From Bilabrum cf. latius (Eukaryota), in the NCBI GenBank assembly GCA_965178125.1, contig OZ237766.1, forward strand, positions 310,001-374,000: a stretch of 64,000 nt of DNA, in the 5' to 3' direction. The notes under the pieces were generated by a model. That model was not told the DNA's origin, made no database searches, and worked only from the letters and a program-made list of their open reading frames with translations. A program made the translations under genes and the position numbers. Positions 1-64,000 of the stretch are shown piece after piece (the first letter of the stretch is position 1; every line of letters begins with the position of its first letter).

Positions 1-1910
1 CTGATACAGGCATCGCAACACAGATATACCAATCGAAAGCATGGCCACCACAGTTCAGTCAGGCGCACCCAAGCCAGCTTCAAGCCCGTCCACGACTTGC
101 ATCAGACCAACCGGCTGATTTGCTCGCTAGCCAACCAGCATCTAGGCCTCAGTCAAAATCAGCGAGTGACCTTCACTGCTGTGTGGCATGGTGTGGAATC
201 ATTGGATGTGACACGGGCGATTTGAAGACAGACAGTATGCATGCATATCTCACGTTGTTCTTGGCCTCGATCTGCGCCCCCTTGGACAGCAACAGCTCGC
301 ACACGGATGCATGGCCATTCCTGGCAGCCTATGCGAGGGGGGTATTTCCGAACTGCGAGGGACTCATGAGGGGAGCAGACCTTAACACAGCTAGGCAGTG
401 CCCTGGTACAGGCATCGCAGCAGAAATACACCGATCGAAAGCATATCCATCACAGGCCAGTCAGGTGCACCCAAGCCAGCTCCAAGTCCATCCACGACTT
501 GCATCAAACCAACCGGCTGGCTTCCTCGCTAGCCAACACGTATCTAGGCCTCAGTCAAAAGGAGCGAGTGACCTTCACTGCCGCGTCGCATGTAGTGGAA
601 TCATTGGATGTGCCTCGGGCGATTTGAAGACAGACAGTATGCATGCATATCTCACCTTGCTCTTGGCCTCGATCTGCGCCCCCTTGGCAAGCAGCAGCTC
701 GCACACAGAGGCATGGCCCTTGGCAGCAGCCCATGCGAGGGGCGTGTCTTCATTCTGCGAGTAACTCTGGAGGGGAGCAGACCTGAACAAAGCTAGGAAG
801 GGCCCTGATACAGGCATCGCAACACAGATATACCAATCGAAAGCATGGCCACCACAGTTCAGTCAGGCGCACCCAAGCCAGCTTCAAGCCCGTCCACGCC
901 TTGCATCAGACCAACCAGCTGGTTTGATCGCTAGCCAACACGTATCTAGGCCTCAGTCAAAATCAGCGAGTGACCTTCACTGCTGTGTGGCATGGAGTGG
1001 GATCATTGGTTGTGACACGGGCGATTTGAAGACAGACAGTATGCATGCGCATCTCACCTTGTCCTTGGCCTCGATCTGCGCCCCCTTGGACAGCAGCAGC
1101 TCGCACACTGAGGCATGACCATTCAAGGCAGCATGTGCAAGGGGGGTGTCTCCATTCTGCGAATGACTCTGGAGGGGAGCAGACCTGAGCAAAGCTAGGA
1201 AGGGCCCTGGTACAGGCACCGCAGCAGAAATACACCGATCGAAAGCATATCCATCACAGGCCAGTCAGGTGCACCCAAGCCAGCTTCAAGCCCGTCCACG
1301 ACTTGCATCAGACCAACCAGCTGGTTTGATCGCTAGCCAACACGTATCTAGGCCTCAGTCAAAATCAGCGAGTGACCTTCACTGCTGTGTGGCATGGAGT
1401 GGGATCATTGGTTGTGACACGGGCGATTTGAAGACAGACAGTATGCATGCGCATCTCACCTTGTCCTTGGCCTCGATCTGCGCCCCCTTGGCCAGCAGCG
1501 GCTCACACACGGAGGCATGGCCATTCCTAGCAGCCAGTGCGAGGGGGGTGGTTCCATTCTGCGAGGGACTCATGAGGGGAGCAGACCTGAACACGACTAG
1601 GCAGGGTCCTGGTACAGGCATCGCAACACAGATATATCAATCAAAAGCATAGATACCGCAGGCCAGTAGGGTGCACCCAAGCCAGCTTCAAGCCCGTCCA
1701 CGCCTTGCATCAGACCAACCGGCTGATTTGATCGCTAGCCAACCAGCATGTAGTCCTCAGTCAAAAGGAGCGAGTGACCTTCACTGCCGTGTGGCATGGA
1801 GTATGGCCATTGGATGTGACCTGGGCGATTTGAAGACAGACGGTATGCATGCGCATCTCACCTTGTCCTTGGCCTCGATCTGCGCCCCCTTGGACAGCAG
1901 CAGCTCGCAC
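1..1910. repeat. Tandem array of ~402-bp units (99-nt ankyrin exon + ~303-nt intron), about 4.7 copies visible
   Basis: Near-identical blocks recur at 402-bp offsets (ORFs at 575, 977, 1379); some intron variants recur at 804 bp (1 vs 805, 403 vs 1207). Confidence 0.95.
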
Positions 1911-2286
1911 GCCAACTTCCAGCCGTTTGCTGCAGATTTAGCCAGTGCTGCCCACTGATGCTGCGCATCATGTCGTAATATTTTGTGATCAAATGCTCTT
2001 GTGTACCTTTACGTTGCGATGATTATGCGCAAATTCATTTATTTGCATGCATAAACCTACCTCAGCATCGTCTGTTCCCTCGATCGTAGCAACAACTTCA
2101 TCTCTGCCTAGCAATCCTTCAAGTTTTTCTTGATTGTTCAATGCATCATGCAATTCCTTTCCGAGCTAGGATAAAGGCCTGCAATAAAGGTAGAAATGAT
2201 CTAGGTGGACAACCAGTTGACATGACATCGTAGCCAAAACTCGGGTACTAGTCATGCTATGTTCTTCAAGCAAATGCACCTCACAT
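1..2286 (-). CDS. Modular ankyrin-repeat protein, paralogue 1 (multi-exon, 3' part runs off the window)
   Basis: Split start AT(2286-2285)|intron 2284-2179|G; cap exon 2178-2061; 99-nt phase-0 ankyrin exons at 1960-1862, 1558-1460, 1156-1058, 754-656, 352-254, each bounded by cag|...|gtgag and encoding e.g. NGDTPLAHAALNGHASVCELLLSKGAQIEAKDK. Two in-frame TAG. Confidence 0.85.
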
Positions 2287-2552
2287 GAAGCGAACGAAGT
2301 ATAACTCAGTATTATCCTTCCTATTTAGGCTCGTAGGCAGCTATGTCTTTGGCCGAAACCTCGGCGTCCAGCGGTGGTTCGGGCGGTTGCAACCATGCTG
2401 TTTGCCGCGCACTGCAAAAACGGAACTACTGCCCACGGGCGAACACAGCGTCTGAGTGCGAATAGATGTTGCCCCGAATCAATGGCGAACTTCGATGATA
2501 ACAATCAAATAAATAGACCTTGTCGACATGTTCAGCTCGTGCTCGGCGCCCA

Positions 2553-5500
2553 TCAGACTACACCCACCATCTTTGCTCTCACACCAGCCCCCATCCCCGC
2601 CAGGCAAGCCTCCCCCTCGGGTGCAGCCCGCTGCAGCGCACTCAGCAGCCCCAGCCCCAGCCCCCTCACCGCCCCAGCAGGCGCCCTCCAATCAGACCCC
2701 CCCCCTCCCCCCCCCCCTCCCCCTCCCCCTCCCCCCCCCGTGCACCGCTCCACCAGCATCAGCGATGCAGCCGCGTGACACCTCACACCGGCATCGTCGC
2801 ACAGCAGGCACGCCGCGATGCACTGCACCCCACCGTCCCACTGCGGCACTCGGGACAGGAACAATGGCACCGCCGCACCAGGGGCCGATGCAAAAGCACA
2901 CGCTACTCCCTATACCACACCTCCCAGACCCCCGAGCACATGCACCGCACATCGTCTCCCTGTGTCATCGCCAACATCATCACCACCGCAACAGCCCTCC
3001 CCTTCCCCCTCATCATCCCCCTCCTATTCTCCTCCCACCGCCACCAAATGAGGCATCATATCTTCGACTCCGATCGATTTCGCCACCTCCAACGCACGAT
3101 GCACCACCTCATCCGATCCAGCCCCACCCATACTTTGCCTGCCCCTCTCCACCGACCCCCGTCCAGCACCGAACGAAGGCGCCTTCAGCGCATCCACCGC
3201 ACTCGTCACACTCCCCATCCCCAGCGCAAGCACCGCAGCGCCCACCCGCCGCCTCCACACATCCACTCCCACCCCCACCCCCCCTTCCCCCCCCTGCGAA
3301 TCCCCCCCCACCACCCCCCTGCACTCCCCCGCCGCCACACGAGCCGCCTCCACCAGCGCACCCTCTAGCCTCGCACTCGCTCTCGCCCGCCTCTGGGGAT
3401 GCACCGCGATCCAGCGAGCCAGGTCACAAGCAGCAGCACTACCACCCCCTACACCTGCACCAACCGATGCTGAAGCTTCCGTGATGAAACCAGCGCTGGC
3501 CAGCAGCAGCCCGCGCGGCACCTCATCGATCGGAGCAAATGCATCACGGGAGACTGGCGACGACGATGCGCCAGCCGAGGAGGAAGACAAAGCCCCACCT
3601 GCAGCAGCAGCACTTCCACCGCCACCCCTGCCCCCACTCGTCACACCGGAAGCCTATCCACGGCCCCTCCCCCTGGCCTTCCTGGCGGCAGGGGCCAGAC
3701 CGGCCACGGACCCGCACACCATCAGCTGACCCAGCCAGTGCTGCTCCGTGGCCGATCGGAGCCATGCCTCACCAAACCGCAGCCCGCTGTCCAGCTGGTC
3801 TGCCAGTGGTGCGTCCAGGCAAGCACTCGTCACACCCCTCGGCGCCCTGGCGCGCAGGATCCGCCGGAGCTGGTCCGCCGCGCGATACTGCTCGTGGGTG
3901 GTTCCGCTGGATTGCGCGGCGTCCTGTCCGGGACCCACCGATGCTCCCATTGTACCCTTGTATCCATCGACCTCAAAATGCGCGGCGCCCCCCAGTTCCG
4001 CTCTCGCCCTGCCCACGGCCTCGTCAAGCGCGAGCGATGCCTCCTCCACGGTGGGGCCCACGCCCTGCTCATCTGCGGAACCGGCGCCGCGCTTGGATGA
4101 AGATGAGGATGCTGCCGACTTGCTACGATCCCCACCACCACCGCCGACCGTTCTATTGCCCCTGTCGCTGCCACCAGCACCGGCACCAGCAGAGTGCGGC
4201 AGTGCAGGCGGCACTGCCACCAGCGCGGCTTCCTTCCTCATGCCCTGCGGAGAAATCGAGAGTTTCCCCGCACTGACGTCAGCAGCCACGTCCCACCACT
4301 CCTGCCTCTCCGCAAACAGCGGATTCGTGCACCCGGCCACAAAGCCTCCCCCCGTTGAAAGGAACCCAGTGTCCGACAGAGACACGTACGGATACACTCG
4401 TTCGCTCACCCCCTCCAGCAACCCCCCCGCTGCCGCCCCCAGCCCGAGCACCAGCTCGCACAACTCCCTCGCAGGCCGTCCCTTGCCGCCCACCACCAGC
4501 ACACGGCGGCCCGATGCCACGGATCGGATCAAACTTGCGGAACCGGCGCCGCCGAACGCCCTCACGAGTGCGGCCAGGCTGCCGTTGCACGCCACGTCTG
4601 GCTCCAAGGATGGGTCCCGGGTGCATCGCACTGCAGCGGCCAATTTCCGACCCATGCCCTTGCCGCCCGCAGTGCCAGCTGCACCTGCATGCGATGCACC
4701 CAAACTAGATGCAGACGGTCTCGCCGGACCATCCGACGTGAGGTCCGCTGCCAGCATCATCTCGCGGTCCCACAGACGGCGAACCTTCACGAACCTCTCT
4801 CTGACCCCAGGCACTTTGGCGCAGTGCGGCAGCGAAGGGGTCCGCCCCGGCAGCGGAACCTACCCCCGCGCCGCGCATCGCGCCACCCAGTCGTCTTCCG
4901 GATTCGCCCCCGGCCCGGGCAGCAGAGGGGCAGCGAGGGCGGAGACGGTTGCAACCGACAGTGCCTCGAACAGCCACCGGGCCACAGACGGCGCCGCGGC
5001 GTCAGCGCCTACAGAACCAACCGAGCCGCGGCTGTCCCTGCGACCGAGCCCGCCGTCTGAGGTTCCGCTGGATCGCGCGGCGCCGCCCGCCATCAGGCTC
5101 CTTCTGTCCTCGTGCCACGTCCCTAGCGCGTCTCTCACAGCGGGCAGCATGGCATCTACCCAGGGAACAGTGGCACACACGGCCAGTGCGAGCATCTCGG
5201 CTCCCCTTGGGCAGTTGGGGTCGCGCCGGGTGCGGCAAACGGAGGCGCAATAGACTTTGCTGCGGGGCCTCGCGTGACCGCTGCCCACTATGTGTTGCAA
5301 CTCTACTCCAGATTGCGATGCATCTTCAAGCTTACTAGCACTTGATGCGGATGACCCAGAGTCTGAAATACCATCGCTAATACCCGAAGTTGGCGGCGGG
5401 CTGGGCTTGTCTGGACTTGCTCGGTTCGAAGCAGGTGCCCGAGGTTCGGGACTGCCAAGCAACCGAGGAGCATGAAGGGTGGCATCGCCCCTCGTTCTGC

Positions 5501-5870
5501 TTTTGGACTTCCGATTTGATTTCCCTGTACTTCGTTTGCTTGCTTCCGAGCTCGCTCCTCCTGCGGCTGAAGTGCGTGTTTCACTGGATGAGACGGGCGA
5601 TCGAGACCGGCCCGCACTGACACCACCACCCGCCACGGGCCAACCCTTTGCTTGAAACTCATCCGCAAATGATTCGGCCGGTAGGATAAAATATGTCGAG
5701 TCTTCATCTTCCTGGTGCCCGCCTTCTGGCAGCATCAGCTCTGCAACTGAACTTGAATCAATCCCGGCCGGGAGTACTGTCGGTTCACACGCATCCAGAA
5801 CGCTCCCACGACGAATATCGAAACGGGCGGCGAACACCCTTAGAATCGGCCAGCCTTCTGGAACTGACAT
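2553..5870 (-). CDS. AFI1: Afi1/MesA-like (DENN-related) protein with N-terminal Afi1 and SPA domains
   Basis: RVFAARFDIRRGS...AELMLPEGGH...STYFIL (Afi1-like) and RVYPYVSLS...GFVAGCTNPLF...WWDVAADV (SPA-like). ORFs 4860-5924, 3654-4814, 3024-3644 and 2553-2870 share one frame, joined through 4 TAG; ends TGA. First in-frame ATG at 5870. Confidence 0.8.
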
Positions 5871-6269
5871 GCCACCGGTTGCTGCAGCCAAAACTGTGTC
5901 CACGAATTCCCTGGGATCCAGCACGTCTTTGAGCCGGTGAGGTGCTTACGAATATTACTTGAAGGCCAATATAATAGGAATAATAGGCAGGGGACTCCTT
6001 CACTTGCAGTAGACTTGGAAATTTTATTCGGTGGATCCGCTGCTGACCGAACCTTCGCTAGTGAATTCGAAACGTTCGGCGTTTCGCAGCACAGCCACCC
6101 AGGTCCCCATTTGGGTGCAGCAAGGCCAATGTTGAGGTAAGATCTCTACAATAGCTCCAGCCCTGGATAGTGAACAAATGAAATGCTACGCGTTGACCAT
6201 GCAATGCACGATAATGTTTTGTTTCGTGCCGATACGCGCGAACATGCTGCTGCCAGCTTCTGCCCATCG

Positions 6270-9200
6270 ATGAACCGGCGATACCATCGACCCCTCGCTC
6301 ACCGCAGAAGGGCAGTATCGACGGCTGCCAGGCGGTTTAACACAAATACTCGTATGTTTGGAAGCTCTGCTAGGCGTATGGAGCGCGTTCTCGCAACAGA
6401 CCCCTTGGACAAGGCCGCTGCAGACATCCTGATTTCCAGGGGCCACGAAGTTGAGCTCTGGCCGTCCAGTCGTTCGCAAGAAGAAGTCATTGAGGCCGTC
6501 AAGGGATACGACGCCCTAGTTGTACGTAGGTAAGACGGGGTATACTCGCATATCGGCTCTTCGTGTAGTGCTAGCGGGTGCGATTCAGAAGCGTGCGACA
6601 CGTCTTGTGCCCGGCCTTGCAACTTGCCTTCGCAGTGGAACCCAGGTCACAAAGGAGGTGATTGATGCTGGTGATTCTTTGAAGATTATTGGCAGGGCTG
6701 GAACCGGGATTGACAACATTGATGTAGCCTCAGCCACCGAGAAGTGAGACGTGCCATTTGACTGCCGGATTATCGATTTGCGTCGCATCATGCACGCTTG
6801 TTTCGTTCGACCCCAGTGACACACTCCCATGCGTGCATGCCATTGATGCCATTTGGCGGCCCATGTCGGTCCAAATGCGTGGTGGGAGGGATTGCCGCCC
6901 GGTTGAGTTGCATCCACGCAAGGCGGAACAGTTGGGCTACGTTGCGAGGCAGTCGGCTTCATACAACGAATACTGCCCGTGCACAATTTCGAATGTATCG
7001 AATTTGCTAACCATAGTGCGCTAGGGCCTACGTATCGGCCTTAAAAGCCGGTCGTCGCACGCGGACCGCATTTTCACTCGTCACACAGTACCGTATCACG
7101 CAAGGCTCGCCACACCTCTTTCCATCGACCACTCGCTCCATCGCAGGGGCATCCTCGTGATGAACACTCCTGGAGGGAACACGCGAGCCGCCGCCGAGCT
7201 GGCCATCACGCTCATCATGGCGGTGGCCAGGCAGCTGCCCCAGGCCGTGGCATCGGTCAAGGAAGGCCGCTGGGACCGGAAGCTTTACATGGGCAGCGAG
7301 GTAGCGGGCAAGACCATCGGCGTGGTGGGCCTGGGGAGAATCGGCCTGGAGGTGGCGGAGTGGTGCAGGGGCGCGGGCATGGAGGTGGTGGGATTCGACC
7401 CGGTGCTCTCCAAGGCGGCGGCAGCAGAGGCAGGGATCGAGCTGCTTCCGCTCGAGGCACTGCTCTCGAGGAGCGATTTCATCTCTCTGCACTGCCCTTT
7501 GACCGCCGACACCAAGCACCTGATTGGGAGGGAGAGCCTGGCCCAGTGCAAGAAGGGGGTGCGGGTCATCAACTGCGCGCGGGGGGGGGTGGTGGACGAG
7601 GAGGCTCTTCTCGAGGGCATCAAGTCGGGGCACGTGGGCGGCGCGGCCCTGGATGTGTTCGAGTCCGAGCCTCCCACGGGGGCCGCCGCCGAGCTGGTGC
7701 AGCACCCCCTGGTGGTTGCAACCCCCCACCTGGGTGCCTCGACCCATGAGGCGCAGCTCACCGTGGCCAAGGCGGTTGCAACCCAGATCGCAGATGCCTT
7801 CGAGCATGGCAGGTACGTCGGCGTGGTGAACGCCTCGTTCATGGACCAGCTCAAGAAACCGGAACTTGTTCCCTACCTCTCCATCGCCGAGAGGCTTGGC
7901 CAGCTGCAGGCACAGCTCCTGCCCGGGGCACAACAGGTCAAGCAGCTCAGGGTGAGGCTGCAGGGGCCCGCCGTGGGGGAGCCTTCCGTGGCACAGGCCA
8001 TCAAAACTGCCGTCACGAAGGGCTTCCTGTCCTCCTTGTCCGCCAACTATGACGTGAACATGATCAACGCGGGCCAGGTCGCCAAGAGGGCCGGCCTGTC
8101 CGTGCAGGAGCTGACCAACGACTCGTCCTCCGGGACCTATTCCAACCTAATCACCGTGGAGGTGGACTCGTCTGACGCACAGGGCCAGCGGGGCGCCTCC
8201 CTCAGCGGCGCCGTCCTGAGCGGCGACCAGACCAGGCTCGTGGACGTGGATGGGTTCAGGGTGGACATCGACCCAGCGGGGCACATGCTCTTCTTCGAGA
8301 ACAAAGACAAGCCGGGCGTGCTGCGGGACCTGACCTCCGTGCTTGGGGAGGCTGGCGTGAACATCGCGTACTTTGGCCTGGGGAGGCACGAGGCAGGGGG
8401 CGAGGCGCTCGGGGTGGTGCAGCTCGATTCGAGTGTGAACGACGCCGTGCTGCAGCAGCTATCCGGAATCGATAACATGGAGCAGATCCGGCCGGTGCGG
8501 GTCACCGACGAGCGCGGCGCGGGCCGCATCCGGGCGGGGTCCCCTTACGATTCCGAGTCCACGGCCGAGGGCGGGCCCAGGCTGACCGTGCCGTCCTCTG
8601 CCGTGCGCAAGCCCGCGGCCCGCCCCGTGAGCCCCCAGTTCTCCTCCGGACCCACCAAGAAACGGCCCGGGTGGAACCTGAGCGCACTGGTGGACGCCGC
8701 GACCGGCAGGTCACACCGTTCCAAGATCGGCAAGGCGAAGCTGCGCGAGGCTATCGACGTGACTAGGAGGCTGCTTGACGTGCCCGATGACTACCGCGTG
8801 GGGGTGGTGCCCGCCTCCGACACAGGGGCCTATGAGATGGCCATGTGGACGATGCTGGGACAGAGGCCGGTGGATGTCTTCCACTGGGAGTCCTTCGGGA
8901 AGGGTTGGATGGGGGACGCTGGATCTCACCTTGGGCTCGAGGAGACCGGCCTGCGTGAGTTCAGCGCGCCGTACGGCGAGCTGCCCGACCTCTCGCAGGC
9001 TGACTGGAGCCATGACGTGTGCTTCACGTGGAACGGGACCACCAGCGGAGTAAAGGTCCCGAACGGAGATTGGATTCCGGATGATCGTGAGGGGCTGTCG
9101 TTCTGCGACGCGACCTCTGCCGTGTTTGCGCAGCACGTGCCCGTGCACAAAACCGACGTGCTGACGTATTCCTGGCAGAAGGTGCTGGGCGGCGAGGCGG

Positions 9201-9748
9201 CCCACGGTATGCTCATCCTATCCCCCCGTGCGGTGGATAGGCTTGAGACCTTCACTCCCCCCAACCGACCCCTGCCCAAGATCTTCAGGCTCACCAAGAA
9301 AGGCAAGCTGACTGAGGACGTTTTCAAGGGGGCCACTATCAACACGCCTTCGATGCTGTGCGTAGAGGATTACTTGGATGCTCTCCGGTGGGCGGAAGAC
9401 ATGGGCGGGGTGGACGGGCTGGTGCAGAGGGCCGACGGGAACCTGGCAGTGCTGCAGCGGTTCGTGGACGAGACGCCTTGGGCGAGTTTCCTGGCCAAGG
9501 AGCCGTCGACCATGAGCAACACGAGCGTGTGCCTGAACGTGGAGCTACCGGCCGACAAGATCAAGGCCATGGTTAGCCTGCTCGACGCCGAGGGAGTGGC
9601 CTACGACATCGGTGCTTACAGGGACGCCCCGCCAGGACTGCGTATCTGGTGCGGTGCCACGGTCGAGGCGAGCGACCTCGAAGCGCTCGTCCCGTGGCTT
9701 AAGTGGGCCTACAATGTCGTGTCCAGCGAGCCCGCCGAGAAGCCGTGA
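6270..9748 (+). CDS. PHGDH-PSAT: D-3-phosphoglycerate dehydrogenase (with ACT domain) fused to phosphoserine aminotransferase
   Basis: Exons ~6270-6529, 6636-6743, 7147-9748 (GT-AG introns rebuild VVRSGT and TEKGILVMN). Motifs [39 protein letters not shown] (ACT), then [40 protein letters not shown]. Start uncertain (6183/6270/6354). Ends TGA. Confidence 0.93.
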
Positions 9749-10108: not shown

Positions 10109-13100
10109 TCACTGCTAGCCTACTGGCAGCCCCTTCGCATGGATCAGCGTGAGCATGTCCACTTCCATCTGGTTCCGGGGCGGCCTACCTCCCTTCAACG
10201 GCGTCAAATGCCGTTTCCGGAGGTTGGTCAAGTAGTTCTTAATGCTCTGGGTCGGCAGCTTCGTTTGCTCCGCCAGCAACACTTTGGTGTCGGCATCTGG
10301 GTACGGCCGGTGCAGGTGAGCCACCACCCACGCGAGCAGCGTTTCAATGGCCTCCTCCGGGAGGAGCTGCTCGCCCTTGCTTTTCCTGCCTCGCTTCACC
10401 ATGCGATCCACCCGGACGACGCCTCCCTCCAATAGCGTCTGCGCTCGTTCGCTCTGCCGAATAAACGCCCGGCCCTGGTCGTTGCACGCGAACGACAGCG
10501 CAGTCCCGTCAAACTCCCCTCCACCGGCCGTGCCCATGCCGTGTTGATCCTATGATGAACCGGAAATCGGCATCACGGATTCACCAGGCAGCCGGCCGCT
10601 CATTCTCTTTCCCGAACCGCCTGATTTCCCTCTCGGCTTCGGTGGCCTACTGGTGGAAGCACTTCGAGTCAAGTCTCCCTTGCCCCTGCCACTGCCCTTG
10701 CCCTTGCCACTGCCCTTGGCCACATCATCATCACCACCAACACCATCGCCGGCCCTGCCTCTGCTACTAGACAATCTCCCCACTCGCCGACCGGCACGCC
10801 CAGCGCGACGACGGCCTCGATTGCGGCCGATTGCTGCCAGGGCGGTCCATTCCTCGTCCTCCTCATCCTCGTCCTCGTCCTCCAAATCATCCTCGTCCTC
10901 CAAATCATCCTCAACCTCCTAATCATCCATGGCTTCCCCCTACTCTTCGTCATCTTCCGAGCTGAAATCGCCATGTCTGCGATTGCCAGATCGCACCCTT
11001 TTCGGTTGTTGGCGGCGGCTAGCTCGACCTCGACCGCTCCTCCTCCTACCATCCCCGTCATCATCCCCTTCGTAGTACTCGCCGTCCTCGCGGTCCCCCC
11101 TTCGGCGCTTGCGACCAGCGCCCCCACTCGTCACACCACCTTCCACCCGGACCGTCCTCCGCAGCACCTTCCCGTCCTTAAGCCTGCCCCCCCTAGGGGG
11201 AGGGAGACGGACCCCCCCCTGGCGATGGGGAGCTCCAGCCTGCAAGGGCTGCTGCTGCTGCTGCTGGTGACGTGCCATGGATGAAGACGAAGATGAAAAC
11301 TGAGACCCTCGTGCCGGACTATAGCCATGGAGCTAAGGCACGTCCTCGATTCCATGTGACGAGTGCCACCCGGAGCCGGAAAGGCCCATCCCGTGGGGGC
11401 TGGGCATCTGCATGAGGCTGCTGACGCCTGGCGACTGGAGCCAGCCGTCCTGGGGTGCACTGCCTTGCAGCACACCAGCGTGCATTGGGTCGTCTGCGGT
11501 CGGGGCCTGGCCAGGTGCACCACCGTGCAGTGCACCCGTCCCGCTCGGCCTCCCCTGCTGCAGGCTGCCGTCGCTCGCGGTGGACTCGTGCGAAAGGTGC
11601 ATCGCACTGCTGCGCGGATACTGCACCGCCGCGCGCTGCATCGACTGGGCCCGATCGCCATGATAGCCCATGCTGTGATGCTGCTGCTGCTGCATCATGG
11701 CCTGCACCTGCATGCCGTGCACCTGCATGCCGTGCAGCTGTTGCAGCCCAGCGTGGTGCATAGCGGCAGCCTGAGGGGGACACGGAGCGTACCAAACCAC
11801 GGGCATCGGCACCGCAGTGCCGTGCATGTTACCCCCCATCCCGGCATAGGGTCCCACCGTTCCGCCAGACATTTGTCTGCCACTGCCGTGCACTGCACCC
11901 GCCAGGCTGCTGGACTCGCTCTCCGCTGATGGGCCCAGCCCGCCCTTCAGCTGCTGATGCTGCTGAGTGCTCCCGGACCGCCCCGCACTAACTGCGACTC
12001 GACTAGTGCGCGACCCACGCTGCGTGGGGCTGATGTTCCCCGGGGAATGGTAACGCTGGTCTTCCGGGCTGCTACCGTGCGATGCACCCCCACCCGTCGG
12101 CTGGTGGTAGCCCACGAGGGGCTGCGGGTGGGTGCCCATCACACTCGTCACACCCATGCGACGGGGTATGATGGTGTGACGAGTGACTCGGTTGGCAGAC
12201 ACTCCGAATCCCGTGGGGGGCGGGGGCAGGTGCCGGCCGATGCCACGCCCCGCATCGCCGTAAGATGAGGCGGCGACCGCTCCGGTTGCAACCGAATCAT
12301 CGGGCATCCCTCCGGATGAAGATGCATAGGTGTGACGACGATCAACAATGGATGCTCCCGAGCCCAATGCGGCAGAAACCCCCACGGGTCCATCCGGGTG
12401 CCGCTGCACGTGCTCAGCCCCCGTGTCATCGTGGTGCTGCGGGTCTGATTCGCTCTCCCACTCTCGGGAGCTGCCCGCCGTGGCCGCCGTGGGCTCACTC
12501 GTCACACCGTGAGAGCTCTCCGCGTGCTCCACGGGTGCTGTGGGGGCAATTCTCGCAGGCGAGAGTCCCAGGCCCCCCTGCCCCGACCCCTGCTGCCCGT
12601 CGGGATGACTGCCAGTGCCCCTCGTCCTGGCCGATTTCCTCCTGCGCTGCGCCGCGCCCTCCGCCCTGGCATCCACCCTTCGATCATGCGTGTTGGCCGA
12701 TGCATGGGTGTGACGAGTGCTGGACCCACCTGAGCTGCCCTCCATCCCGCTGGTCGAGTGGAGGGCGGAGAGAGCGGCCGGTTCGCCGTCGCACGCAACG
12801 CCACCTGCTTTGGCACCGCTCGCGCTTCCTGTCCTTTTAGCGGCGGAAGATCCGAGAGCAACAATAGATTCAGCGGATGGTTCTTCTTGTGTGACTGCAA
12901 ATTGCAACTGCGTTGCATTGCTGCTTTCCTGCTGCCTTCTGGTTGCTGCGGACGAGCGAGCATCACCGGTTCCGAGGCTGCTCGCACCTCGGTGTCCTTC
13001 CGTCCTGCGGCGTTTTCGCGCCTAACGGGCCATGACTGCATCATTTACGGAAATGCCACCTATGGCTAGTAGCTGCGCAGATGATGGAATTCGATTTCGC

Positions 13101-13234
13101 TGCTGAGCGGCCTCGAGTGCTGCTACCACGCCGTGCTCAAAGCTTGCTTGCGCGGCCGGTCGCTGCTGACCAGTTGAGCAAACATGCGAAATTCTCCGCC
13201 CTTGATTGAGCTGCGTGCTGCTGTCTGCGTTCAT
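10109..13234 (-). CDS. TALE-class homeodomain transcription factor, long low-complexity N-terminus
   Basis: C-terminal LPEEAIETLLAWVVAHLHRPYPDADTKVLLAEQTKLPTQSIKNYLTNLRKR. One frame from ATG 13234 through TAG at 13022, 11333, 10940, 10919, 10550, 10115 to TGA 10109. Confidence 0.82.
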
Positions 13235-14760: not shown

Positions 14761-16224
<1,464 letters not shown>

Positions 16225-31564: not shown

Positions 31565-31731
31565 TCCGGGATGTGTCATGCCTTGGCGAAAATCCGATAC
31601 GGATACGTCCGAAATCGGTTTTCAAATGAATCCTAGACTTTTCTCTTTCTGATACAGGATTAACTTAACTTAATTCGTGGATTTGAAGTAGAGAACGGAA
31701 GTACGGGTAACTATAGCCATATTTCCGTCTT

Positions 31732-47300: not shown

Positions 47301-47641
47301 CAATGGCAACGGCAGCTGCAGCCGCAGCAAACGGTTCCGCGGCGCCCCCGAGGCATGGGTCACCCGTCGTTGCGAGCAGCAAGCCGCACCCGATGGAGGA
47401 ATTCGGTGCCCTCTTTCACTTTCTGCTGCACGAAGACATGGGCGCCCACAATGAGTCGGTTCTTGGACAGCTGCAGGGAAGGCTCACGAGCTCCTCGAGG
47501 GGGACGGGAGGCGCATTTGGGAGGCGGGTGTCCAGGAAGAGGAGGGAGAAGCGAGCGGCTAGTGGGGCTGGGGATGGCTCGGGGTCGGGCGGTGCTGCCG
47601 CCTCTGTTGCGGCGGGGGTAGCTGGGTAGGTGCGCGGCTGA
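41355..47641 (+). CDS. Large ankyrin-repeat and BTB/POZ domain protein (~2,000 aa)
   Basis: Exons 41355-41435, 41530-41637, 41732-47641; many TPLH ankyrin motifs and BTB motif FADVELV...VRAHRVVLAAR...GMQES...VEYMYTG. In-frame TAG at 42488, 42581, 42737, 45491, 46766, 47627; ends TGA. Confidence 0.87.
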
Positions 47642-47776
47642 GTCTGGCACATGGGGGGATGGGCGAGTTGAGAGAGGCAGCACAGTGTTTGAGTGCGCTG
47701 ATCGCTCCCACATATGGATTCATTTCACAGCAATGTTACCTGACCGCGCACGTAGCCACCAGAGTCCTCCACGTCA

Positions 47777-50641: not shown

Positions 50642-50841
50642 AGTGACTTGAATTTATACTAGACAGCCGAAAATACGGAGGAACGAAAGGGCAACTGCGG
50701 AGGAGGTTGCAACCGGCGTGCCGATGGACCAGGATCGAATTCTACGTGTCCGCAAGAACTGCACACATCACTGGCGGTACAGCATCATCTGCTGTATTTC
50801 TACGGGTTTCCAGTACATTAGGTACCACTCGGTACCGGTGC

Positions 50842-53800: not shown

Positions 53801-56800
53801 GCTCGGGTGCATCGCACGGTGGTGCGGGTGGTGTCGATCTCGAAGACGTAGAAGGCGCCAGCACGCCATCCCTCATGGCTGGCGGGGCCTCAGGGATGCG
53901 GGAGGGTCGCAGGACACCGAGGGACGGGCCCGTGGGACTTGCGGCCGAGAGGGTCGGCACACCGGATGGAGTGATTCAGAGCAGCAGGGCGGCTCCGGGT
54001 GAGATGCCTGTGGGGGCGGCTGCGGCCGTCCTGTCCGGACCATCCTCAGCATCGGCATCGGCATCGTCCGCATCGTCGGCTGGGCAGCGGGCAGCTGGGG
54101 ACGGCGCTTCGGCAGGGGCTGAGACCGGGTCCAGCACCGGCGAACCTACCGTTGAGCCTCTAAGGAACAGCGGTGTGACGAGGGTGAAGAGCCTGCCTCT
54201 AAGGAACAGCGGTGTGACGAGGGTGAAGAGCCTGCCTCGGCCCCGGTCCGGGATCCTTGCACTGCCACCGCTGCCACCCAGCCCAACAGGCCAGCAGCAG
54301 GCCATGCAGGACGACGCAAGCAGTATGGGCAGCAGCAGCGCGGGGCTTGACGGTGAGGTGGATGCATCGCACGGTGGTGCAGACTCCCAGGCGATCGTTC
54401 CGATCTCATCCGATCCTGACGTCATCGTCGGGGGCCCGTACCGCTTCCCCGTCCCGCAGAAGCCTTGGCCCAGGCCCCGCACCGTGTATATCCAGCCATC
54501 CCCCGCTGAGGAATTGATCGGCGCCAGGCGGCCGTTCCTGGCCCAGCCCTTGGTGGCCGCGCGACTGAGCAGCTCGTTGCTGGATGTGACGGGCCTGAAG
54601 GACGCCATGAAGGCATGCTTCGCCGCGGGCAAGGAGCAGGTGATAGACACGCTCAGCAAGGCCCACATCGAATGCCTCAAAGCCCTTAGACCAGTGGCGA
54701 GCAAGATCAAGCAGCCAGATCCATTGCGTGCCATCATGTGCATCTTCCAGAGTCCCGTGCTGACGCTGTTAAAGCCAAGCAAGGCCTCCCTGGAGACAGT
54801 CTCGCGGCTGGCCGAGGTCGTGCTGGCCCTGCCCCAAGCCTCCAGGAAGCTGCTCCTCGCGTGGGTGGCCGAGGATGTATCCGGAGCCATATTTGAGAAG
54901 CACTATGTGAAGCCCATGCAGCGGCACCTGAGCGTGCTCATCAAAGCCACGCTGATGCAGAGGCAGTCCGTGCAGGTGGCTCCTGGGATCAGCGCACTTC
55001 GGGGCATGGAGATGCTGGTGGTGGTGCTGGGTCACCTGTTCGACCTGAATGCAGACGTGGCGAGGAGGGCGAGGGAAGTGGCCGTGTACGGGAACGCAGA
55101 AGCGGCGGAGGCTGCGAGGATCGGAGCGGTGGAGGGTGCAGCGCACGATGGTGGTGAGGGCGGCGCGGCGGCGGGAGGAGCCGCCGCTGCCTCCTCCTCT
55201 GGTCCGTCCTCGGGAGCCGGCAGCGGGGACGTTGGGGTGGATTCTAGAAGTGCTGCATCGAGCCAAGGTGTATCGCATGGTGGTGCAGCGGCAGGAGTAA
55301 TTGCAGCACTTCCCAGCACGGCGGGAGGTACCCTGGGGAAGGTGAAGAGGCTGCCCACCCGTGCCAGCAAGGCAGACGCGATCCGCACGGCATCAAACGA
55401 GCTAAGGAACGCCGCCGCTTTGGCCACCTCTCAGGTGCCCCACAGCCAGGAACGGATCTTCGCAGACGAGGTGCACGATTCGGATTCTCTGGGCGGCAAG
55501 GTGTGGGGCCTGGTGCCTGCCTCGTCCTTCAACAATCCAACCGTGTGCGAGCTGCCAGAGGGCGTGCTGCAGCACGACTACAGGCTATGGCGGCAGCAGC
55601 GGTTTCAGATGCGGACCAAGACGTTCACTCTCTGCGCCTATCCGTTTCTCATGGACGCAGCAACGAAACGGAAGGTGCTGTCATTCGAAGCGGCTCTCCA
55701 GATGCAGATGCAGATGCAGAGTGCCATGGCGAGGAGTCTCTTCGTGCGAGAGACGCCATACCTAGTGGTAGAAGTGGGAAGAGAGAACCTTCTCCGGGAT
55801 TCGATCAACATGCTCGCCTCGCAGCACCCTTCTTTCCTCAAGAAGCCGCTGCGGGTCATTTTCCGGGGGGAGGAAGCGATCGATGCCGGTGGTGTAACCA
55901 AGGAGTGGTTCCAGCTCCTGCTGCAGCTGATCCTCGATCCATCCTACGGCATGTTCGAGCAGGTCACGGGAAGCAGGCTCGTGTGGTTCAGGAAGAATTC
56001 AATGGCGGACCCCGCCGAGTTCCGGCTGATCGGCATCATTGTGGGGCTGGCTATCTTCAACGGCGTGCTGCTGGACGTGGCATTTCCCCGCGCGCTATAC
56101 AAGAAGCTTCTCGGGATGCCAGTCGGTCTGACAGACCTGATCGAGCTGGACCCCGATCTGGGCCGTGGACTGTTGCGGGTGCTGGAGTACGGCGAGGACG
56201 ACATGGAGGACGTGTTCTGCCTCGATTTCACCGCCCAATACCGCGAGTTCGGCGAGACCAAGAACGTGGAGCTGATCCCAGGCGGGGCGGATATCGAGGT
56301 GTCGCAAGCAAACAAGCGCAAGTACGTGCGAGCATACGTGGACTGGTACCTGAATCAGGCTGTCAAGCAGCCTGGTTTCAAAGATTTCGCTCACGGATTC
56401 TCAATGGTGGCAGACGGGCCGTCCCTCAAGCTGTTCGAGCCCGAGGAGCTTGCACTACTTGTGGCAGGCTCGAGCGAATTGGACCTGAGGGAGCTAGAAA
56501 AAGTGTGCGAGTACGACGGCGGGTTCACCGCGAGGAGCAAGACGGTCGTTGATTTCTGGGCCATCGTGCACGGCTGGCCGCAGAAGCTGCAGAAGAATTT
56601 GCTTTTGTTCGCTACGGGCTCTGCCAGGGCGCCCATCGGAGGTCTTTCGAAGCTCAACTTCAAGATTCAGAGGAATGGGGGAGACACGAGCCGACTGCCG
56701 ACGGCGAGCACCTGCTTCAATACCCTGCTCCTTCCCGAGTACGGCAGCAAGGGCAAGATGGAGGAGCGGCTCCGCACGGCGGTGCAGAACTTTAAGGGTT

Positions 56801-56814
56801 TTGGTTTGAAATGA
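50842..56814 (+). CDS. HERC-type E3 ubiquitin ligase (RCC1 repeats + C-terminal HECT), ~1,990 aa
   Basis: RCC1 repeats (VACGDTHT, WGRNKRGQLG) and HECT (FRGEEAIDAGGVTKEWF, LPTASTCFN). TAG at 51010, 51502, 53281, 53467, 53686, 53692; ends TGA. Confidence 0.93.
54157..54234 (+). repeat. Perfect 39-bp tandem duplication in HERC coding sequence
   Basis: CCTCTAAGGAACAGCGGTGTGACGAGGGTGAAGAGCCTG x2 (PLRNSGVTRVKSL). Confidence 0.95.
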
Positions 56815-57610
56815 TTGCGGATGGCGAGGAGGTGGAGGTGGTTCGTCTAGAGGCAGCCAGGCTGTGGGAGCACGATGAGTGCGTGAAGGTGCTGGAGCAG
56901 GCCCCGTTGTGAAGTGAATCCGGCAACTGTCCGATTTCGTAAGGTATACCACGTACATCTCGGCCCCCGCCGCACACTATCCCATGGATCCATCAGGATG
57001 TAGCCACTTACTTTCGACACCACACGAACATGCCGAATCGGATAGAACGATGGATGCAACGTTTCACAGCAGTGACTACTAGATCTCTAGACCTAATCCA
57101 CATCCGGATGCATTCAGGGATCCCCGGATAGTGGTACGGGGTATCCGTCCACTCTTCTCTCATCCACGTTCGCCTGTGCGTTGAAAGGCATCTTACCGCG
57201 ATGTGAGGTGCTGGCTTTTTTAATCGAACTAGTGCGGCCAGTGGGGTATCTCTTGCTGATTTGGAAATTTCTGATAGTCAGTTACTCCTTGTCCAACACA
57301 AAGTTAAATATCGAATGATGCTATAGTTTTATGAAAATTCAAATTCAGAGTAATTCCTTCGAATCTCTCTCGGATGAATCTCTCGCAGAAACAAGTCGAG
57401 GGGGAAGGGCGGGGAGGGATGTAGACTATACTCTCATACTCCCAATCTGAACGCGGAAGCATTCCAGGTCCCACCGCCCCCTTCCCACCTTGATGTCCTG
57501 CCTGTGCCTTCCACTTCCTCCGCCAATCCGTATTGCCCACCTTTTCCTCCACTCTCATCCGCCCTCCCTCGTCCCACAATTGACTGCCAAAACAGCCACA
57601 TTCAGCCGAC

Positions 57611-60600
57611 TTAATAAAGAAAACCAACCATTCCATACGAAGCGATGATGGACGCAAACGTTGCCAGCCCCGCCAGAATCATGCGTCGCTCGGAGCCACG
57701 CGATGGCGATTGAACAAATTCGGACAGCTCTGATTGGTCTGGAATTGGCACGTGGTAGGTTTCCAGATCTGCATAGGCAAGCTCCAGCAAACCAGCTGCG
57801 GTACTTGCAACATCTTCGTCCGAAGATTTACAAAGTCCCTCCAAGACACCCATGATGCCAGCACCAGCTAAGATCTAAATCCCAGAGTCGACATGCTTCT
57901 GGGATATGACCAGCTCCTGGAGCATTCGCACAACGGCGTGTTCGTCTCGAATAGGCATCCTCAAAAGTTTCTCAGGAACACTAATCGAAAGCGGTTTAAA
58001 GTCGTACTCCACTAGCTGGCTGTACAGTAGAGCATGTATGTTGTTAGCCTGAACAGCAATACCGAAACTTGAGCACTTCCTGCACCGGGATACAACACGT
58101 AGTACGCCTGACCCAGCTAAAGCTTGAACAATTACAGGATCGTTGTTGCTAGCTAGCCGCACAACTATATCGAGAGCTACCTCTACCATTTGATCGTTGC
58201 ATCCCCCCGAATGCCCAACGCTTCTAATAATCCAAACAAGTGGTGCGAGTAGTCCAGATTGAACTGCTGGTCGATGGGCGACGGTGCAGTCCGACAGGAG
58301 GACGCGATAGGCGTTCAGCGCTATGTACGCTTCTCTGCCAAGTCTACCCATCGCATTTGCCAAACCGTGAAGAACTCCGGACGAAGCGATCGCCTTTTTG
58401 ATCTTAAGGGAGTGCTAGGCCAGTTTCTTGACAAGCCACCCTACTTTGACAATGGAATCACCATGCCGAGAGAATAGCACATGGGCAAGTCCACCAAGCC
58501 CCCCAGCTTGAATGAATGACGTTGCATCCGCCTCCGAGTCGGCAATGATCCGACTCAGAAGGATAGCGACACGGCCAGGCTATGGCACGCGCAGGAGTAG
58601 GCTCACCAGACCTGGAAGTGCACTTTCCGCATCCACACAGTCTTTCACTGTATCGAGGTAATAGTTTGCCATTCGTGATAGTACATCGGATGCAAAATAG
58701 AGCACCTGTGAGTTCTGCTTCTGCTAGCAAAGCCGGACAAGTGGCCTGACTAGTGACTAAACTTGCGGTTGTGTTGCAAACATGATTGATTTGCAGGCCC
58801 TCACTGCAACATGCACGGCATCAGGATTTGAGCTGTTGATAAGCTAGATTGCGAGCTCTATTGCCCCCTGCTCGCGAGCAATACTACGAACTACATCGTT
58901 ATGGCTCGCGATGCTACCAAGGGAGGCCAATGCATGTAGTTTTTGGCCCAAAGGAATCCCATCTCTAGTAGCCGTGTGAATCAGAGCTCCGACCAGCACT
59001 GACAGACCTTCATCGTCTCGTTCACTACTTGACCACCTCGTTTCGCGTGGCATTCGACAGCGGGTATCAATATGTTCTAGTGCAGTGGCAATCCTTTCCG
59101 AATCGCGCGACGAGAGTCCTTCCGTGATGGCAGAAACTGATGCAAAGTTCTCCCAAGGCCTCGTATCCCAAGTAAGCAGTGTGCCAGGGTCTGCTAATCC
59201 GAGGGCTTCCTTGGCGACATCAGCCGACTGGTTTCGGCAAGGTATTTTGACTTCTGCAACCCCGTCAGATTGCGACGGCATCGACACACCCAAGCGGACT
59301 GGGTAATTGGTCGGCACAAACGTTCCTGCATTCGCAAATTCGCCCTTCTTTGTCCATTCGTGACGTTTGAGAGATTCGAGTGTCTGCTCCAATAGCTCAG
59401 AATCATGGATTGCCGACCCGCATGAAACAATTGATAGTTCCCGATCGAGAGACAAAAAAGTCCAATCGATGTCTTGGCAAAGGAGTGCCTAAACTCGAAG
59501 CGTATACTCACTCGGAGCCACAGCATCGTCCGTGGTCCCTATGTCAAAAGCGCAACCAGCAGCCTGTCGATACATGGCAAGGCTCACATCGCCTATATGA
59601 GATTGCTCAGGATCTTGTGCGGAGACTGCATCAATAGCCTGAATCAAGGCATCCTCTTGCACGCATGTTCCGAGATCACGTGCATTAGAATCTACAAGAA
59701 CAAGGGCAATGACCCTCAGAGCCCATGATTTCTCGGATGTTGACGGCGACTTCAAGGAGGCCTATATCTATCTGAACAGCATCCTCCGTTGTGCTTGCTA
59801 CGCCGCTCCTACAACAGAAACCGACTCTGTTTTCGGCCTATCTGTACCTGTCACAGTCTTGATACACGGTGCCGACGCTGGCGGTGCTGAGCCATCTGCA
59901 GCTGCCGCAGTCTTGGCGGACGATGCCGGCACTGGCGGTGCTGTAGAGCACATGAAGTAGTCTCGCTGCAGGGCTGCCTAGCTCAAGTCTGTCTGAACGA
60001 TACCATCCTGTCGTAGCTCTTCCAGAGTGTCGAGTATTGAACCATATGATGCTGCCGATCCTACCTTATGGCGCAGCCTATGAGAGTGCTTGAGGAATGC
60101 AAGGCGAATAGTGGATACTCTACACGGCAACTCAGACAGCAATATAGGGATGAACGTCCTCAGTCTCTTCAGTGCTTCAAATTCTTGAAACTAGGCCTAC
60201 ACCTCATCGCGCATTGTGTTCAAGCTCTCGTCGCTGAGCCGGGCACGTCCGGCTCGCAGCTGCTAACGCGAGAGCAAGCAGCTGTCAATGTATATGAGCA
60301 GATTTAGCAGCGACTGCCCGTACTCAGGATGGCTCTTCCCAAGGACAGCAGCACGCAGCTCTCTACACTTATCCTCAAGCTCCAAAGCGTCCCACATCGC
60401 TCCCTGGGCCTGCCACGAGACCTGCGTGGCTATATGACTAAGGGTTGTGATGTAGTCTGGATGCAGCTAGTCCAACACCTTTGAACGAATTGATAGGCAC
60501 ACTCTGAATTTCTCCTCAGCTGGTCTATGCTTCTTCTAGGCTGCCAGACAGTTGCCCCACCGATGGATGACTTTTGCATAGTCAGGATGGTCTGAGCCCA

Positions 60601-63600
60601 GTGTGCTCAGCAAAATTGTCGACGCCTTCTGGTACATTTCTTCTGCTTTTGCGAACTCACGCAACCGAGAGAAAACGTCAGCTTGATACGACAGCGCAAT
60701 AGCATAACGAGGATGCTCCTAGTTGAAGTCATGGAGTTGCTTCGAAACGGATTGAGAACACAATTCCCGAGCTGCTGCATAGTCCCCGCTATCACCACGC
60801 CTCATATAACACTCAGACGCATCCTACAGCAGCTCACAATAGCCGTGGCGATCTTTGGCCATCAACGCGATGCACTCCTTGAACTTGTCAAGTGCAGCTC
60901 CAAGCTTGCGTTGCTTCATGAAACACTTTGCAATTAGCAATACAAGCGTCGAGTAGTCAGCATGTTTCCGGTCCATTCTATCGCAGCAAAACTCATATAT
61001 CTTCATGGCCTCCATGTACTTGCCTTGCCTAACCAGCGTTTCGCCGATATCGGCGAGTCGGCACAGCACTGTTGTGTTGTACTGCGGTCGGCGTGGCTAG
61101 GAGCCTGAAGCAGCAGCTCGTGCAGCTGCACGTGAAGATATATCGTCAATAAGACCAGTGAATGCCTCCTGTGCTTGTCGAGCGCGTACGACTGGTCTTA
61201 TCCAGCGAAGCCCGGCTGACTACTATGCAAGGGTGCACAGCGCATTGAGGAGATCTCCCTACCCAGTTCCACCAACACGCTGCAGGTGGCCAAGTTCGTC
61301 TAGCAGCGATTGCAGGCCATCCAGCGCAGATTTTGCATGGATACCCCCAGTGATAGCCAGTTCTGCCCCAATGACTGCGGAACCAGCGTCCTGGGGTAAC
61401 TAGATCTCGGAACGAGCCTCCTGTGTATCAAGACAGAATTCAATAGGTTGAAACAGCAAACCTTTCGAAGCAAACAGCCCTGACATTGCGGCCAGTTGCT
61501 AGGCTCTCCCCCGCTGATCGACAGGCAGCAATTCCTATAGAATCTACAACAGGTCATGAACCACATCTGAACCATGTGCAAGCGCACGAATGATTCTATC
61601 ATGGAAGACTTTGTGCCCACTGCCGAAACCCTGCAATACGATGCGTGCGTGTCGCAACCCGAGCCCAATAGAATGCATAGCTCTCTTGAGAATAGTGCGG
61701 TCGTGGATAGGATCTGCCTTGCTCTTCTCAAGTTCACGTATGATCTGTTCAGGTCCTGATTGTCTCGCTCGGCTGTACAGTTCAGAGATGACTGCTTCGG
61801 CATGATCTAGCTCAGGATGTTTCTCATGTAGTGGGAACCTCGTCTAGATCCGGATCTGCTTCATAATTGCATCGGGACACAAGCCGACCATACCATCCCC
61901 AGCTCGACTTGACTGTAGTACTTTGGCAGCCTCGGGCGGTAGTAAGCAGGTAAGGGACACATTACCGCGGTAGTACCAACTTGGACAGGACATGATGGCC
62001 AGCATACCTGGCGAGCCAGATGAGCTCTTTGTCACGGCTATTGCACAGCCAAGCTCAGGGTAATCTACAGCTGGTTCGAAATGGGAAGGTATGCCGTTTT
62101 GCTCAGCCCAGGTATTCAGAGCCGCATTGCGATCTGTGCTAATGCCACTAAGCTGAACCACTTGTGGAGGTGATGCCGCTGCACCGCTCGACCTTACCAC
62201 CCAGACCCGTGGCTTAGCCTCCACCGACGACTTCATCCATTGAATCCACGGTACGTCCGGGATAAGGAGGCGATGGGTATCCAACACCATGCGCTCTCCA
62301 CTTGGTAGCTGGTGTATCTCCACGTCAAACGGAAGGTGAAACTCAGTAGGCTTTGGCATCAGGTGTGGCTGGATCAACGACCCGGATCCAGCCTACAAGC
62401 CATCCATTTTTGTTGGCTATGCATTATGCCGTATACCCCGTGAGCTAGGCTATGTCCGCAGGTCTACTTTGCCATTCTACACAACCTAAAAGGCTTGCCT
62501 TGCCAGCTCCTACTGATTGCCTGTCAGTTTAGATGTTGCCTAGTTTTCAAAGTACTCCACGCTTGGGTTGCAAGCTGCTTTCACAGCCTCCAAAACTGAA
62601 ACCTCCATGCTACCTCCCGGGAAATCAAGCACGGACGCTTGTGGATCCTCGCCGAATGTCCCTGAACCGTCATGGCAACCTTCATCGTGAGCATCTGTTG
62701 CGGGGGGGTACGAATGACATACAAGTGCTTTACACATCAACAACCCCGGTGAAAGATAAAAATGCTTAGCCAGCGGCTTCACGACGTCTTCCAACTGTTC
62801 ATCGTCCCAATGAATAGATTTCATACTATCCGCTGAGCCAACGCGCATTGTAGTGGAATTGACAGAAGCTTTGAACTCTTCTGTAAAACCGCCCTTTTGC
62901 TCTGCCTCGTCATACTTTTTGCAGCCGCGAACATCAATGCGAGCAAATGCCTGCACGCGGATGGTGCAATAGCCACCACTTTTCAAGGCAACACGAATGT
63001 CAACGCACTCAAGCAGTGGTGTTGACACGTGTACGCTGTCCATAGCATGAACCCAACGACTTGCTGAAGCCTCCCGTTTTGCTGCTTTGGCTGCCATGCG
63101 GGAGCTACCATATATGCTCTCTTGGTCGAATGCAAATTTCAGGAAGAGCCCCAGGCGCTCATGCACAGCCTTGATGCCCCCAGCACTGCCACCAGCATTC
63201 ACGAAAATGATCCCTAACGCTTCTTGTATTCTCTTTCTGTCTAAATCAGTGAATCCAACAGGGCCAAGCGACGAGTTTTCATTGCTCCATTTCATTTGTA
63301 AAGGTGGAAGCCGCTTTGGATCAAGCGCAATGTGCACATCGTTACTGAAGCGGCTCCCAATTCCCCGGAGCAGCGATGTCCGCTCTGCAACCTAATACGG
63401 ATACAAAGCTACAATACGCTTGGCAGCTTCAAAGGCGGGCTGACGACCCCCACTTTCGACACTCTCTAAGCCAACGGTAGCCGCTCCACTTAAATAGTCG
63501 GAATCGCCACCATAGGGGGTCCTAGCCTGGTAGGCCGCTTCGGATGCATGGATATCCCCGCCACTGGAAGGATCGTCATTTCCAGCGCCAGATGCAGGGT

Positions 63601-64000
63601 GATCTTGACGCGATCTCCCTGCAGGTACAGTACCTGCTTCGGCTTGTGAGGTCTCCATATCGGGCGTCCCTGAACGTCCGCTGCAATGATGAGGTGACGT
63701 CGTGCAACTAATACCAGCATCAGTGGCCCCTGCCAGTGATGCTGGCTAGCTGCATTCAGATGACACGGCGGTGCTAGTCCTCGAAGCCCCGGTAGTGATT
63801 GAGGGCTCCACAACCCTAGCAGCTTGCTCCGACGTCGCATCGTCATCATTAACCGGTGCTGCCGTTGGTAGCCCCCCGGAGACTGCGCCAGACAACATGA
63901 CCTCAGTAGCTGGCAGCATCTCGCCGTGCGGTGGCAACACGTAAGCATTGCTGTTCTGCTAGCTAGGCGTGCAGGTCGATTCAACCGTGCTAGACTCAGC
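57611..64000 (-). CDS. Giant protein with CLU-like domain, kinesin-light-chain-type TPRs and C-terminal ARM-like repeats (5' end outside window)
   Basis: One frame of >2,100 codons containing about 37 TAG and no TAA/TGA until TAA 57611. IYGSSRMAAKAAKRE, TPLLECVD, LDTHRLLIPD (CLU-like); LGSDHPDYA, LGKSHPEY (TPR); helical ARM-like tail. Confidence 0.8.

Follow-up and report, generated by a model that had tools for sequence, protein, structure and literature searches.

We examined a 64,000-nt stretch of DNA from Bilabrum cf. latius (positions 310,001-374,000 of the forward strand of contig OZ237766.1, assembly GCA_965178125.1; hereafter the window) and found that its protein-coding genes depart from the standard genetic code. 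In the window UAG is read as sense, and the only terminators seen are TAA and TGA. Taking all of the evidence together, we put at roughly 0.82 the probability that a stramenopile near Cafeteria reads UAG as an amino acid, most likely glutamine, while UAA and UGA still terminate translation.

The composition of the reading frames carries the first part of this finding. Across 16 open reading frame (ORF) segments, which represent 15 genes and 14,944 codons, 96 TAG triplets lie in frame and there is neither a TAA nor a TGA. Because the ORFs were bounded by TAA and TGA, these two zeros arise by construction, and we took the two off-frames of the same 16 segments as the yardstick of chance. The off-frames contain 116 and 119 TAG, 38 and 49 TAA, and 240 and 314 TGA; the in-frame lack of TAA and TGA far exceeds chance. 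A first-pass annotation, made by a model from the sequence alone, had reported about 100 in-frame TAGs in 16 genes, with no gene interrupted by TAA or TGA. The latter claim was borne out and the TAGs are real, with the recount setting their number at 96, in 16 ORF segments that make up 15 genes. A small number of the 96 may fall within introns or untranslated regions (UTRs), for example two at 6683-7024, upstream of an exon of a phosphoglycerate dehydrogenase gene described below.

G+C content across the window is 53-66%, and with the standard code no stop-to-stop frame exceeds 1039 aa. Reading through TAG alone yields frames of 2129, 2055, 1999, 1130, 1045, 1021, 985, 893, 792, 711 and 658 aa, and complete Pfam domains span these read-through frames, including an RCC1-like domain (1-363 of 363), a HECT domain (2-306 of 306), and ankyrin, BTB, TPR_12 and CLU domains. 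The longest frame belongs to a CLU/TPR gene (CLU and TPR_12 by Pfam; 57611-64000, minus strand) that runs off the end of the window and whose 2129 codons include 37 in-frame TAGs with no further stop before its terminal TAA. An RCC1-like and HECT E3 ligase gene (50647-56814, plus strand) contains six in-frame TAGs, one of which, at 51502, occupies a position of the GQLG motif, and ends in TGA. A further six are found in an ankyrin-repeat and BTB gene (41642-47641, plus strand), one within the BTB domain and one four codons ahead of the terminal TGA. When TAA was made sense as well, the long ORFs gained only 3 to about 70 codons (2129 to 2132, 1130 to 1148). We dropped ORF length alone as a test, since stop triplets in GC-rich DNA are most often TGA, and reading TGA as sense therefore lengthens many frames too.

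The ends of the genes were in agreement with this division of the stop codons. Eleven of 15 terminators are TGA, four are TAA and none is TAG, which leaves intact the four TAA and the absence of TAG reported by the first-pass annotation and lowers its count of 13 TGA. Four C-termini are anchored by homology, namely those of the HECT gene, of the phosphoserine aminotransferase and of two cathepsins, and all four end in TGA; the HECT profile of Pfam reaches the final residue before the TGA, and the aminotransferase stops at the same residue as its homologue P0003.

The frequency of TAG also varied with base composition, in step with that of CAA. TAG accounts for 1.7% of codons in a gene of 52% GC and for about 0.3% in genes of 64% GC, tracking the frequency of CAA. 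The 52% GC gene, with 2129 codons, uses 37 TAG, 39 CAA and 40 CAG, and the fused phosphoglycerate dehydrogenase-phosphoserine aminotransferase (PGDH-PSAT) gene, with 84% G/C at third codon positions, uses no TAG in 907 codons, one CAA and 30 CAG.

The PGDH-PSAT gene (6174-9748, plus strand) was used to place the organism. It consists of an N-terminal exon ORF (6174-6530) and a main ORF (7025-9748) that ends in TGA, and its exons are without TAG. Pfam identifies phosphoglycerate dehydrogenase domains in the ORF at 6683-9748 (plus strand), and the C-terminal half aligns with proteins named phosphoserine aminotransferases in their source. A homologue search returned 7098 matches, and all named ones among the best 120 were stramenopiles; within these 120, Cafeteria roenbergensis was the top named match at 62% identity, with brown algae, Tribonema and oomycetes ranking next (about 48-55%). 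Two database proteins, P0003 and P0004, are 87% identical to the window protein. In a quick maximum-likelihood tree of this one gene with 37 rows, P0003 branched outside a pair formed by the window and a metagenomic locus, L001, whose product is P0004. This group had a support of 100 and a long stem, and it adjoined a clade containing Cafeteria with a Shimodaira-Hasegawa-like approximate likelihood ratio (SH-aLRT) support of 86. The PGDH-PSAT fusion is also present in listed stramenopile homologues, for example those of Cafeteria, Ectocarpus and Phytophthora. Protein homology thus supports the view that the window derives from the nuclear genome of a stramenopile related to Cafeteria and other bicosoecids, a genome rich in GC and poor in introns.

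We additionally recovered a sister species from metagenomes. A first scan of metagenomes for CLU patterns yielded no relative; a scan that returned 31 loci included L001 (5029 nt) and L002 (2760 nt), found in two metagenome records and both coding for P0004 (100% identity). In both loci the predicted PGDH-PSAT protein halts at a TAG, and the frame runs more than 100 conserved codons further to a TGA, which in L001 is the stop of the PSAT part. Two further in-frame TAGs occur in L001, one within the N-terminal exon of PGDH and the other in a cathepsin gene. The TAGs of these loci lie elsewhere in the conserved genes than those of the window. The sister species thus has in-frame TAGs of its own, and the use of TAG as sense is therefore a trait of the clade and not a feature of one assembly. 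Gene order differs between the two species: the cathepsin gene of L001 (4791-5027, minus strand) directly follows PGDH-PSAT, and in the window a homeobox-like gene (10109-13246) lies between them.

To establish whether the TAGs are present in independent data and in transcripts, we compared positions 44001-64000 of the window with contigs from four studies (runs X1, X5, X6 and X7), counting only covered parts as evidence. No letter differences or indels were listed for any of the four. Two long X1 contigs span the whole of this region, and X6 and X7 cover parts of it that are identical to the window and so yielded no information on polymorphism. The X5 contigs (44001-47555, 50778-54185, 54209-56907 and 57304-64000) have ends close to gene borders and a depth that varies by gene from 6.8 to 42. 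Throughout the CLU/TPR gene, the contig at 57304-64000 shows no differences, and X5 keeps the TAGs of both the CLU and the HECT gene. Another X5 contig joins 50365 to 50468, skipping 102 bases that read GTAAGATA...CATCGCAG on the minus strand, a GT..AG intron; X7 contigs extend over 50782-56870, matching the span of the HECT gene. As the X5 contigs are transcript-shaped, one of them with its intron removed, TAG is probably present in the mRNA, i.e. not edited away.

We then asked which amino acid UAG specifies. The most informative columns were those in which a TAG could be aligned with a close homologue. The window contains two cathepsin L-like genes, copy A (Peptidase_C1 with I29 propeptide; 16555-17595, plus strand) and copy B (14764-16057, minus strand; exons 15683-16057 and 14764-15600), which both end in TGA. 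Copy B reads GAT TAG GTG where copy A reads GAT CAG GTG, with glutamine; both are papain-family proteins by Pfam, and the pairing of TAG with CAG that the first-pass annotation had described was borne out codon by codon, with TAG in the minus-strand copy and CAG in the plus-strand one. At position 914 of the CLU protein the window has VGGTG-TAG-GDL and the relatives' fragment P0279, at 73% identity, has VGGTA-Q-GDL. The TAGs of L001 gave three more comparisons: that in the PGDH exon corresponds to CAA (Gln) in the window, that in PSAT to CAG (Gln) in the window and to Q in P0003, and that in the cathepsin gene to TCC (Ser) in copy B and CAG (Gln) in copy A. The nearest partner of TAG is therefore Q in four of the five close-homologue columns and S in one, and never E or K. 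Scored with BLOSUM80, the five columns sum to 17.5 for Q, 5.5 for E and 3.5 for K, and with four independent profile columns added the totals are 21.1, 8.7 and 6.9 bits, respectively.

A conserved motif pointed to the same residue. The TAG at 51502 lies in NDEG-TAG-LA, at a position where five sister RCC1 repeats read GQL, as the first-pass annotation had also proposed. When 19 residues plus X were substituted at this codon, C being left out, the Pfam score of the RCC1 segment was best with Q (19.8 bits), followed by A (18.8), with E, K and R at 17.7, W, L and I at 15.5 and F lowest at 15.3; the RCC1 repeat family was recovered by Pfam only with Q. An alignment of the RCC1 region to the PDB stopped short of the TAG column. 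A third argument of the first-pass annotation, that an ankyrin cap exon reading LS-TAG-L aligns with HSQL, was not confirmed: the LSXL pattern occurs at 21931 (plus strand), 60008 (plus strand) and 2174 (minus strand), and none of these sites is in the ankyrin gene. Judged from these alignments, UAG probably encodes glutamine, and glutamate is the main rival. We regard glutamine as probable but unproven, since the assignment depends on no more than four columns of close homologues and a single motif of strong conservation.

A number of observations weigh against the reading set out above or against parts of it. The terminators number only 15 and come from a single 64-kb window, which contains no tRNA genes, so that a decoding tRNA was not seen there, and no eRF1 among its identified genes. 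For X5 and X7 no run type is recorded, no RNA run was listed as containing the stretch, and the automatic label of X5 is 'RNA? (probably DNA)', which is why we grade the presence of TAG in mRNA as probable and not as proven. Comparisons with more distant proteins, in turn, gave a flat or contrary picture of the amino acid. A profile derived from 149 TPR proteins is rich in E at two TAG columns: at column 1094, E accounts for 225 and Q for 13 of 602 residues, and at column 1178 the figures are 279 and 12 of 717. Among the 120 PGDH-PSAT homologues (the best 120 of 7098), 102 have E at the PSAT position and four have Q; at the PGDH exon position, 50 of 93 have K and 28 have H. Summed over six profile-only columns, E scores 5.3, K 4.0 and Q 2.6 bits, and such columns cannot separate the three residues. 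Twelve CLU TAG columns show mixed residues against distant relatives of 27-38% identity, and the Pfam scores for BTB, the sphingosine-phosphate-lyase-like protein and cathepsin are almost flat over Q, E, K and A. The CLU/TPR ORF had few useful partners: a search for homologues of near its length gave only two weak TPR matches, and a HMMER search with 1200 aa of it listed 150 proteins, of which 149 were generic TPR proteins and one was the relatives' fragment P0179, in whose alignment the window TAG stands opposite a gap and so yields no residue. Nor did we count the residue that comes next where each of these fragments ends (K for P0179, L for P0279), since the DNA from which the fragments derive was unavailable.

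These columns are what would favour a code in which UAG is sense but stands for glutamate, or lysine, with UAA and UGA as stops, and two TAGs within an acidic run of the homeobox-like ORF point the same way. We nevertheless consider such a code unlikely. Neither E nor K is found among the five close-homologue partners, and the RCC1 motif scores 2.1 bits better with Q than with either. TPR column 1155 has Q as its commonest residue, at 204 of 749, against E at 8. As P0003 branches outside the window and L001, and both P0003 and the window have Q at the PSAT column, reading the L001 TAG as E would require a change from Q to E. Leucine fits poorly as well, with 15.5 against 19.8 bits in RCC1 and 52.2 against 54.0 in BTB. 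Glutamine, as the first-pass annotation had proposed together with UAA and UGA as stops, is thus the meaning best supported by the close homologues and the RCC1 motif, with the profile-only columns undiscriminating.

The ends of two genes raise a separate question, namely whether UAG could be dual, specifying an amino acid within genes and still acting as a terminator near some mRNA 3' ends, as in ciliates with context-dependent stops. The homeobox-like gene ends (10109-10120, minus strand) in ...PVG-TAG-Q-TGA and the ankyrin/BTB gene (47627-47641, plus strand) in ...VAG-TAG-VRG-TGA, and TAGs situated two and four codons before TGA could be working stops. These late TAGs are explained equally well as former stops that may now be read through to the next TGA, two of 15 is a small count, and the four homology-anchored C-termini all end in TGA; we hold a dual UAG to be distinctly improbable. 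Least credible of all, and close to negligible, is that the TAGs are not translated, being instead the marks of pseudogenes, assembly or base-call errors, RNA editing to CAG, or introns. A few do probably lie in introns or UTRs, such as the two upstream of the PGDH exon, and the kind of the X5 run is only guessed. Decay, however, would also have brought TGA and TAA, and none is found beside the 96 TAGs; the contigs of four studies agree without listed differences, the transcript-shaped contigs with an intron removed retain the TAGs, and the sister species, from two other records, has TAGs at different sites of the same conserved genes. In addition, ORFs of at least 2000 aa with complete domains have no space for 37 introns.

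If UAG is read as glutamine, the change could be explained as follows. A tRNA-Gln with the anticodon CUA would decode UAG, and since this anticodon pairs with UAG and not with UAA, UAG would be free to change alone. The release factor eRF1 would have lost recognition of UAG and kept that of UAA and UGA. New TAG codons would then arise from CAG by C-to-T mutation and act as a synonymous third, AT-richer glutamine codon.

Codes of this kind are known from other eukaryotes. Cases in which UAG changes without UAA are few according to PMC11687900, which lists UAG-only glutamine codes in the fornicate Iotanema spirale, the ciliate Protocruzia tuzeti and two phyllopharyngean ciliate lineages, and which gives pairing by a CUA-anticodon tRNA as the reason that UAG can change alone; such codes are linked to NCBI table 15 (PMC9523058). 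As in these lineages, UAG in the window is sense, most likely glutamine, with UAA and UGA as stops; they differ from the window in lineage, the latter coming from a GC-rich (53-66%) stramenopile near Cafeteria. The same source ascribes UAR = Gln (NCBI table 6) to many ciliates, Ulvophyceae, Hexamita, Streblomastix and Amoeboaphelidium (PMC11687900). There, too, stop codons have been captured for glutamine, whereas TAA is not sense in the window, with no in-frame TAA against 96 TAG and four genes ending in TAA. Further codes in which UAG shifts independently of UAA, as in the window, assign it to leucine (an uncultured rhizarian and a phyllopharyngean ciliate) or serine (Scotinosphaera) (PMC11687900), or to glutamate with UAA as lysine in ciliate PL0344 (PMC10553269); in the window, by contrast, leucine scores poorly, serine is found in one of the five close columns and glutamate in none.

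Cafeteria roenbergensis is, like the window organism, a heterotrophic stramenopile and is its closest named relative by PGDH-PSAT; its PSAT column is E, where the window clade has Q or TAG. The available portions of the Cafeteria genome paper (PMC6972860) mention only a mitochondrial code with UGA = Trp and no nuclear change, and the portions of a 2024 stramenopile overview cite work on mitochondrial codes only. Full-text searches of the literature turned up no report of an altered nuclear code in stramenopiles, with the limit that supplements could list such calls for bicosoecid or MAST genomes. The code of the window thus belongs to a type already known, in a lineage from which it has not been reported, and it appears to be the first such change in stramenopiles. 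The proposal of the first-pass annotation that the organism is not a ciliate and that its code has an independent origin finds support in this absence of a stramenopile precedent and in the grouping of PGDH-PSAT beside the Cafeteria clade. We lean slightly towards a broader interpretation, in which this would be the first nuclear stop-codon reassignment in stramenopiles, shared by at least three related bicosoecid-like flagellates (the window organism, the L001/L002 species and the P0003 species), with UAG as glutamine in a GC-rich genome, independent of ciliates and metamonads, and with some former TAG stops still visible just upstream of TGA.

The window contains several further genes and repeats. 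A DDE_1 transposase ORF of the pogo/Tc5-like type (20401-22779, plus strand; 792 codons, TAA stop) has nine in-frame TAGs and no TAA or TGA, which indicates that this mobile element is written in the host code. A gene for a pyridoxal phosphate-dependent decarboxylase, resembling sphingosine-phosphate lyase (26626-28602, plus strand), has one in-frame TAG and a TAA stop. The homeobox-like gene mentioned above (10109-13246, minus strand) is a long low-complexity ORF with a putative homeobox-like C-terminus, read by eye, and has six TAGs, one of them two codons ahead of its TGA stop. The gene at 47777-50659 (minus strand), which is interrupted by the 102-nt GT..AG intron at 50366-50467, has two in-frame TAGs and a TGA stop. 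With the intron spliced out as in the X5 contig, its protein begins MSGSSRAIITVCVGPLGCMTG, an N-terminus that we take, as a candidate only, to resemble tubulin-like Misato/DML1 proteins. Three more ORFs on the minus strand end in TGA: one of 1130 codons (2553-5945) with four TAGs, whose N-terminus is 77% identical to part of the relatives' contig L001; one of 985 codons (33820-36777) with nine TAGs, which may contain introns; and one of 711 codons (38198-40333) with three TAGs, in which the peptide DSDRGHGRPSASMAAA occurs in four tandem copies.

When the window was compared with itself, the cathepsin pair were the only coding paralogues and the remaining pairs belonged to a probably non-coding repeat. 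The two cathepsin genes are head-to-head inverted duplicates; their propeptides are identical over roughly the first 60 aligned positions and the protease domain is 69% identical, a pattern suggestive of gene conversion at the 5' ends. The repeat family, whose unit measures about 400 bp, is arranged in tandem at 1-2000, with dispersed copies at about 18200-19600 and 29300-31600. Its copies match one another in several reading frames, and the repeat is probably non-coding; for this reason an apparent pairing of TAG with W or Y inside it was not usable as evidence on the code.

Taken together, our results have consequences for how the genomes of this clade are read. Standard-code gene calling fragments genes here, and the CLU gene of the relatives is represented in the protein database solely by fragments of 76 to 129 aa; genomes, metagenome bins and transcriptomes of the clade need a translation table in which TAG is sense. 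In addition, a GC-rich case with a sister species at about 87% protein identity permits the joint change of the CUA-anticodon tRNA and eRF1 to be compared, and the same comparison can address the rate at which CAG and TAG interchange and the fate of genes that once ended in TAG.

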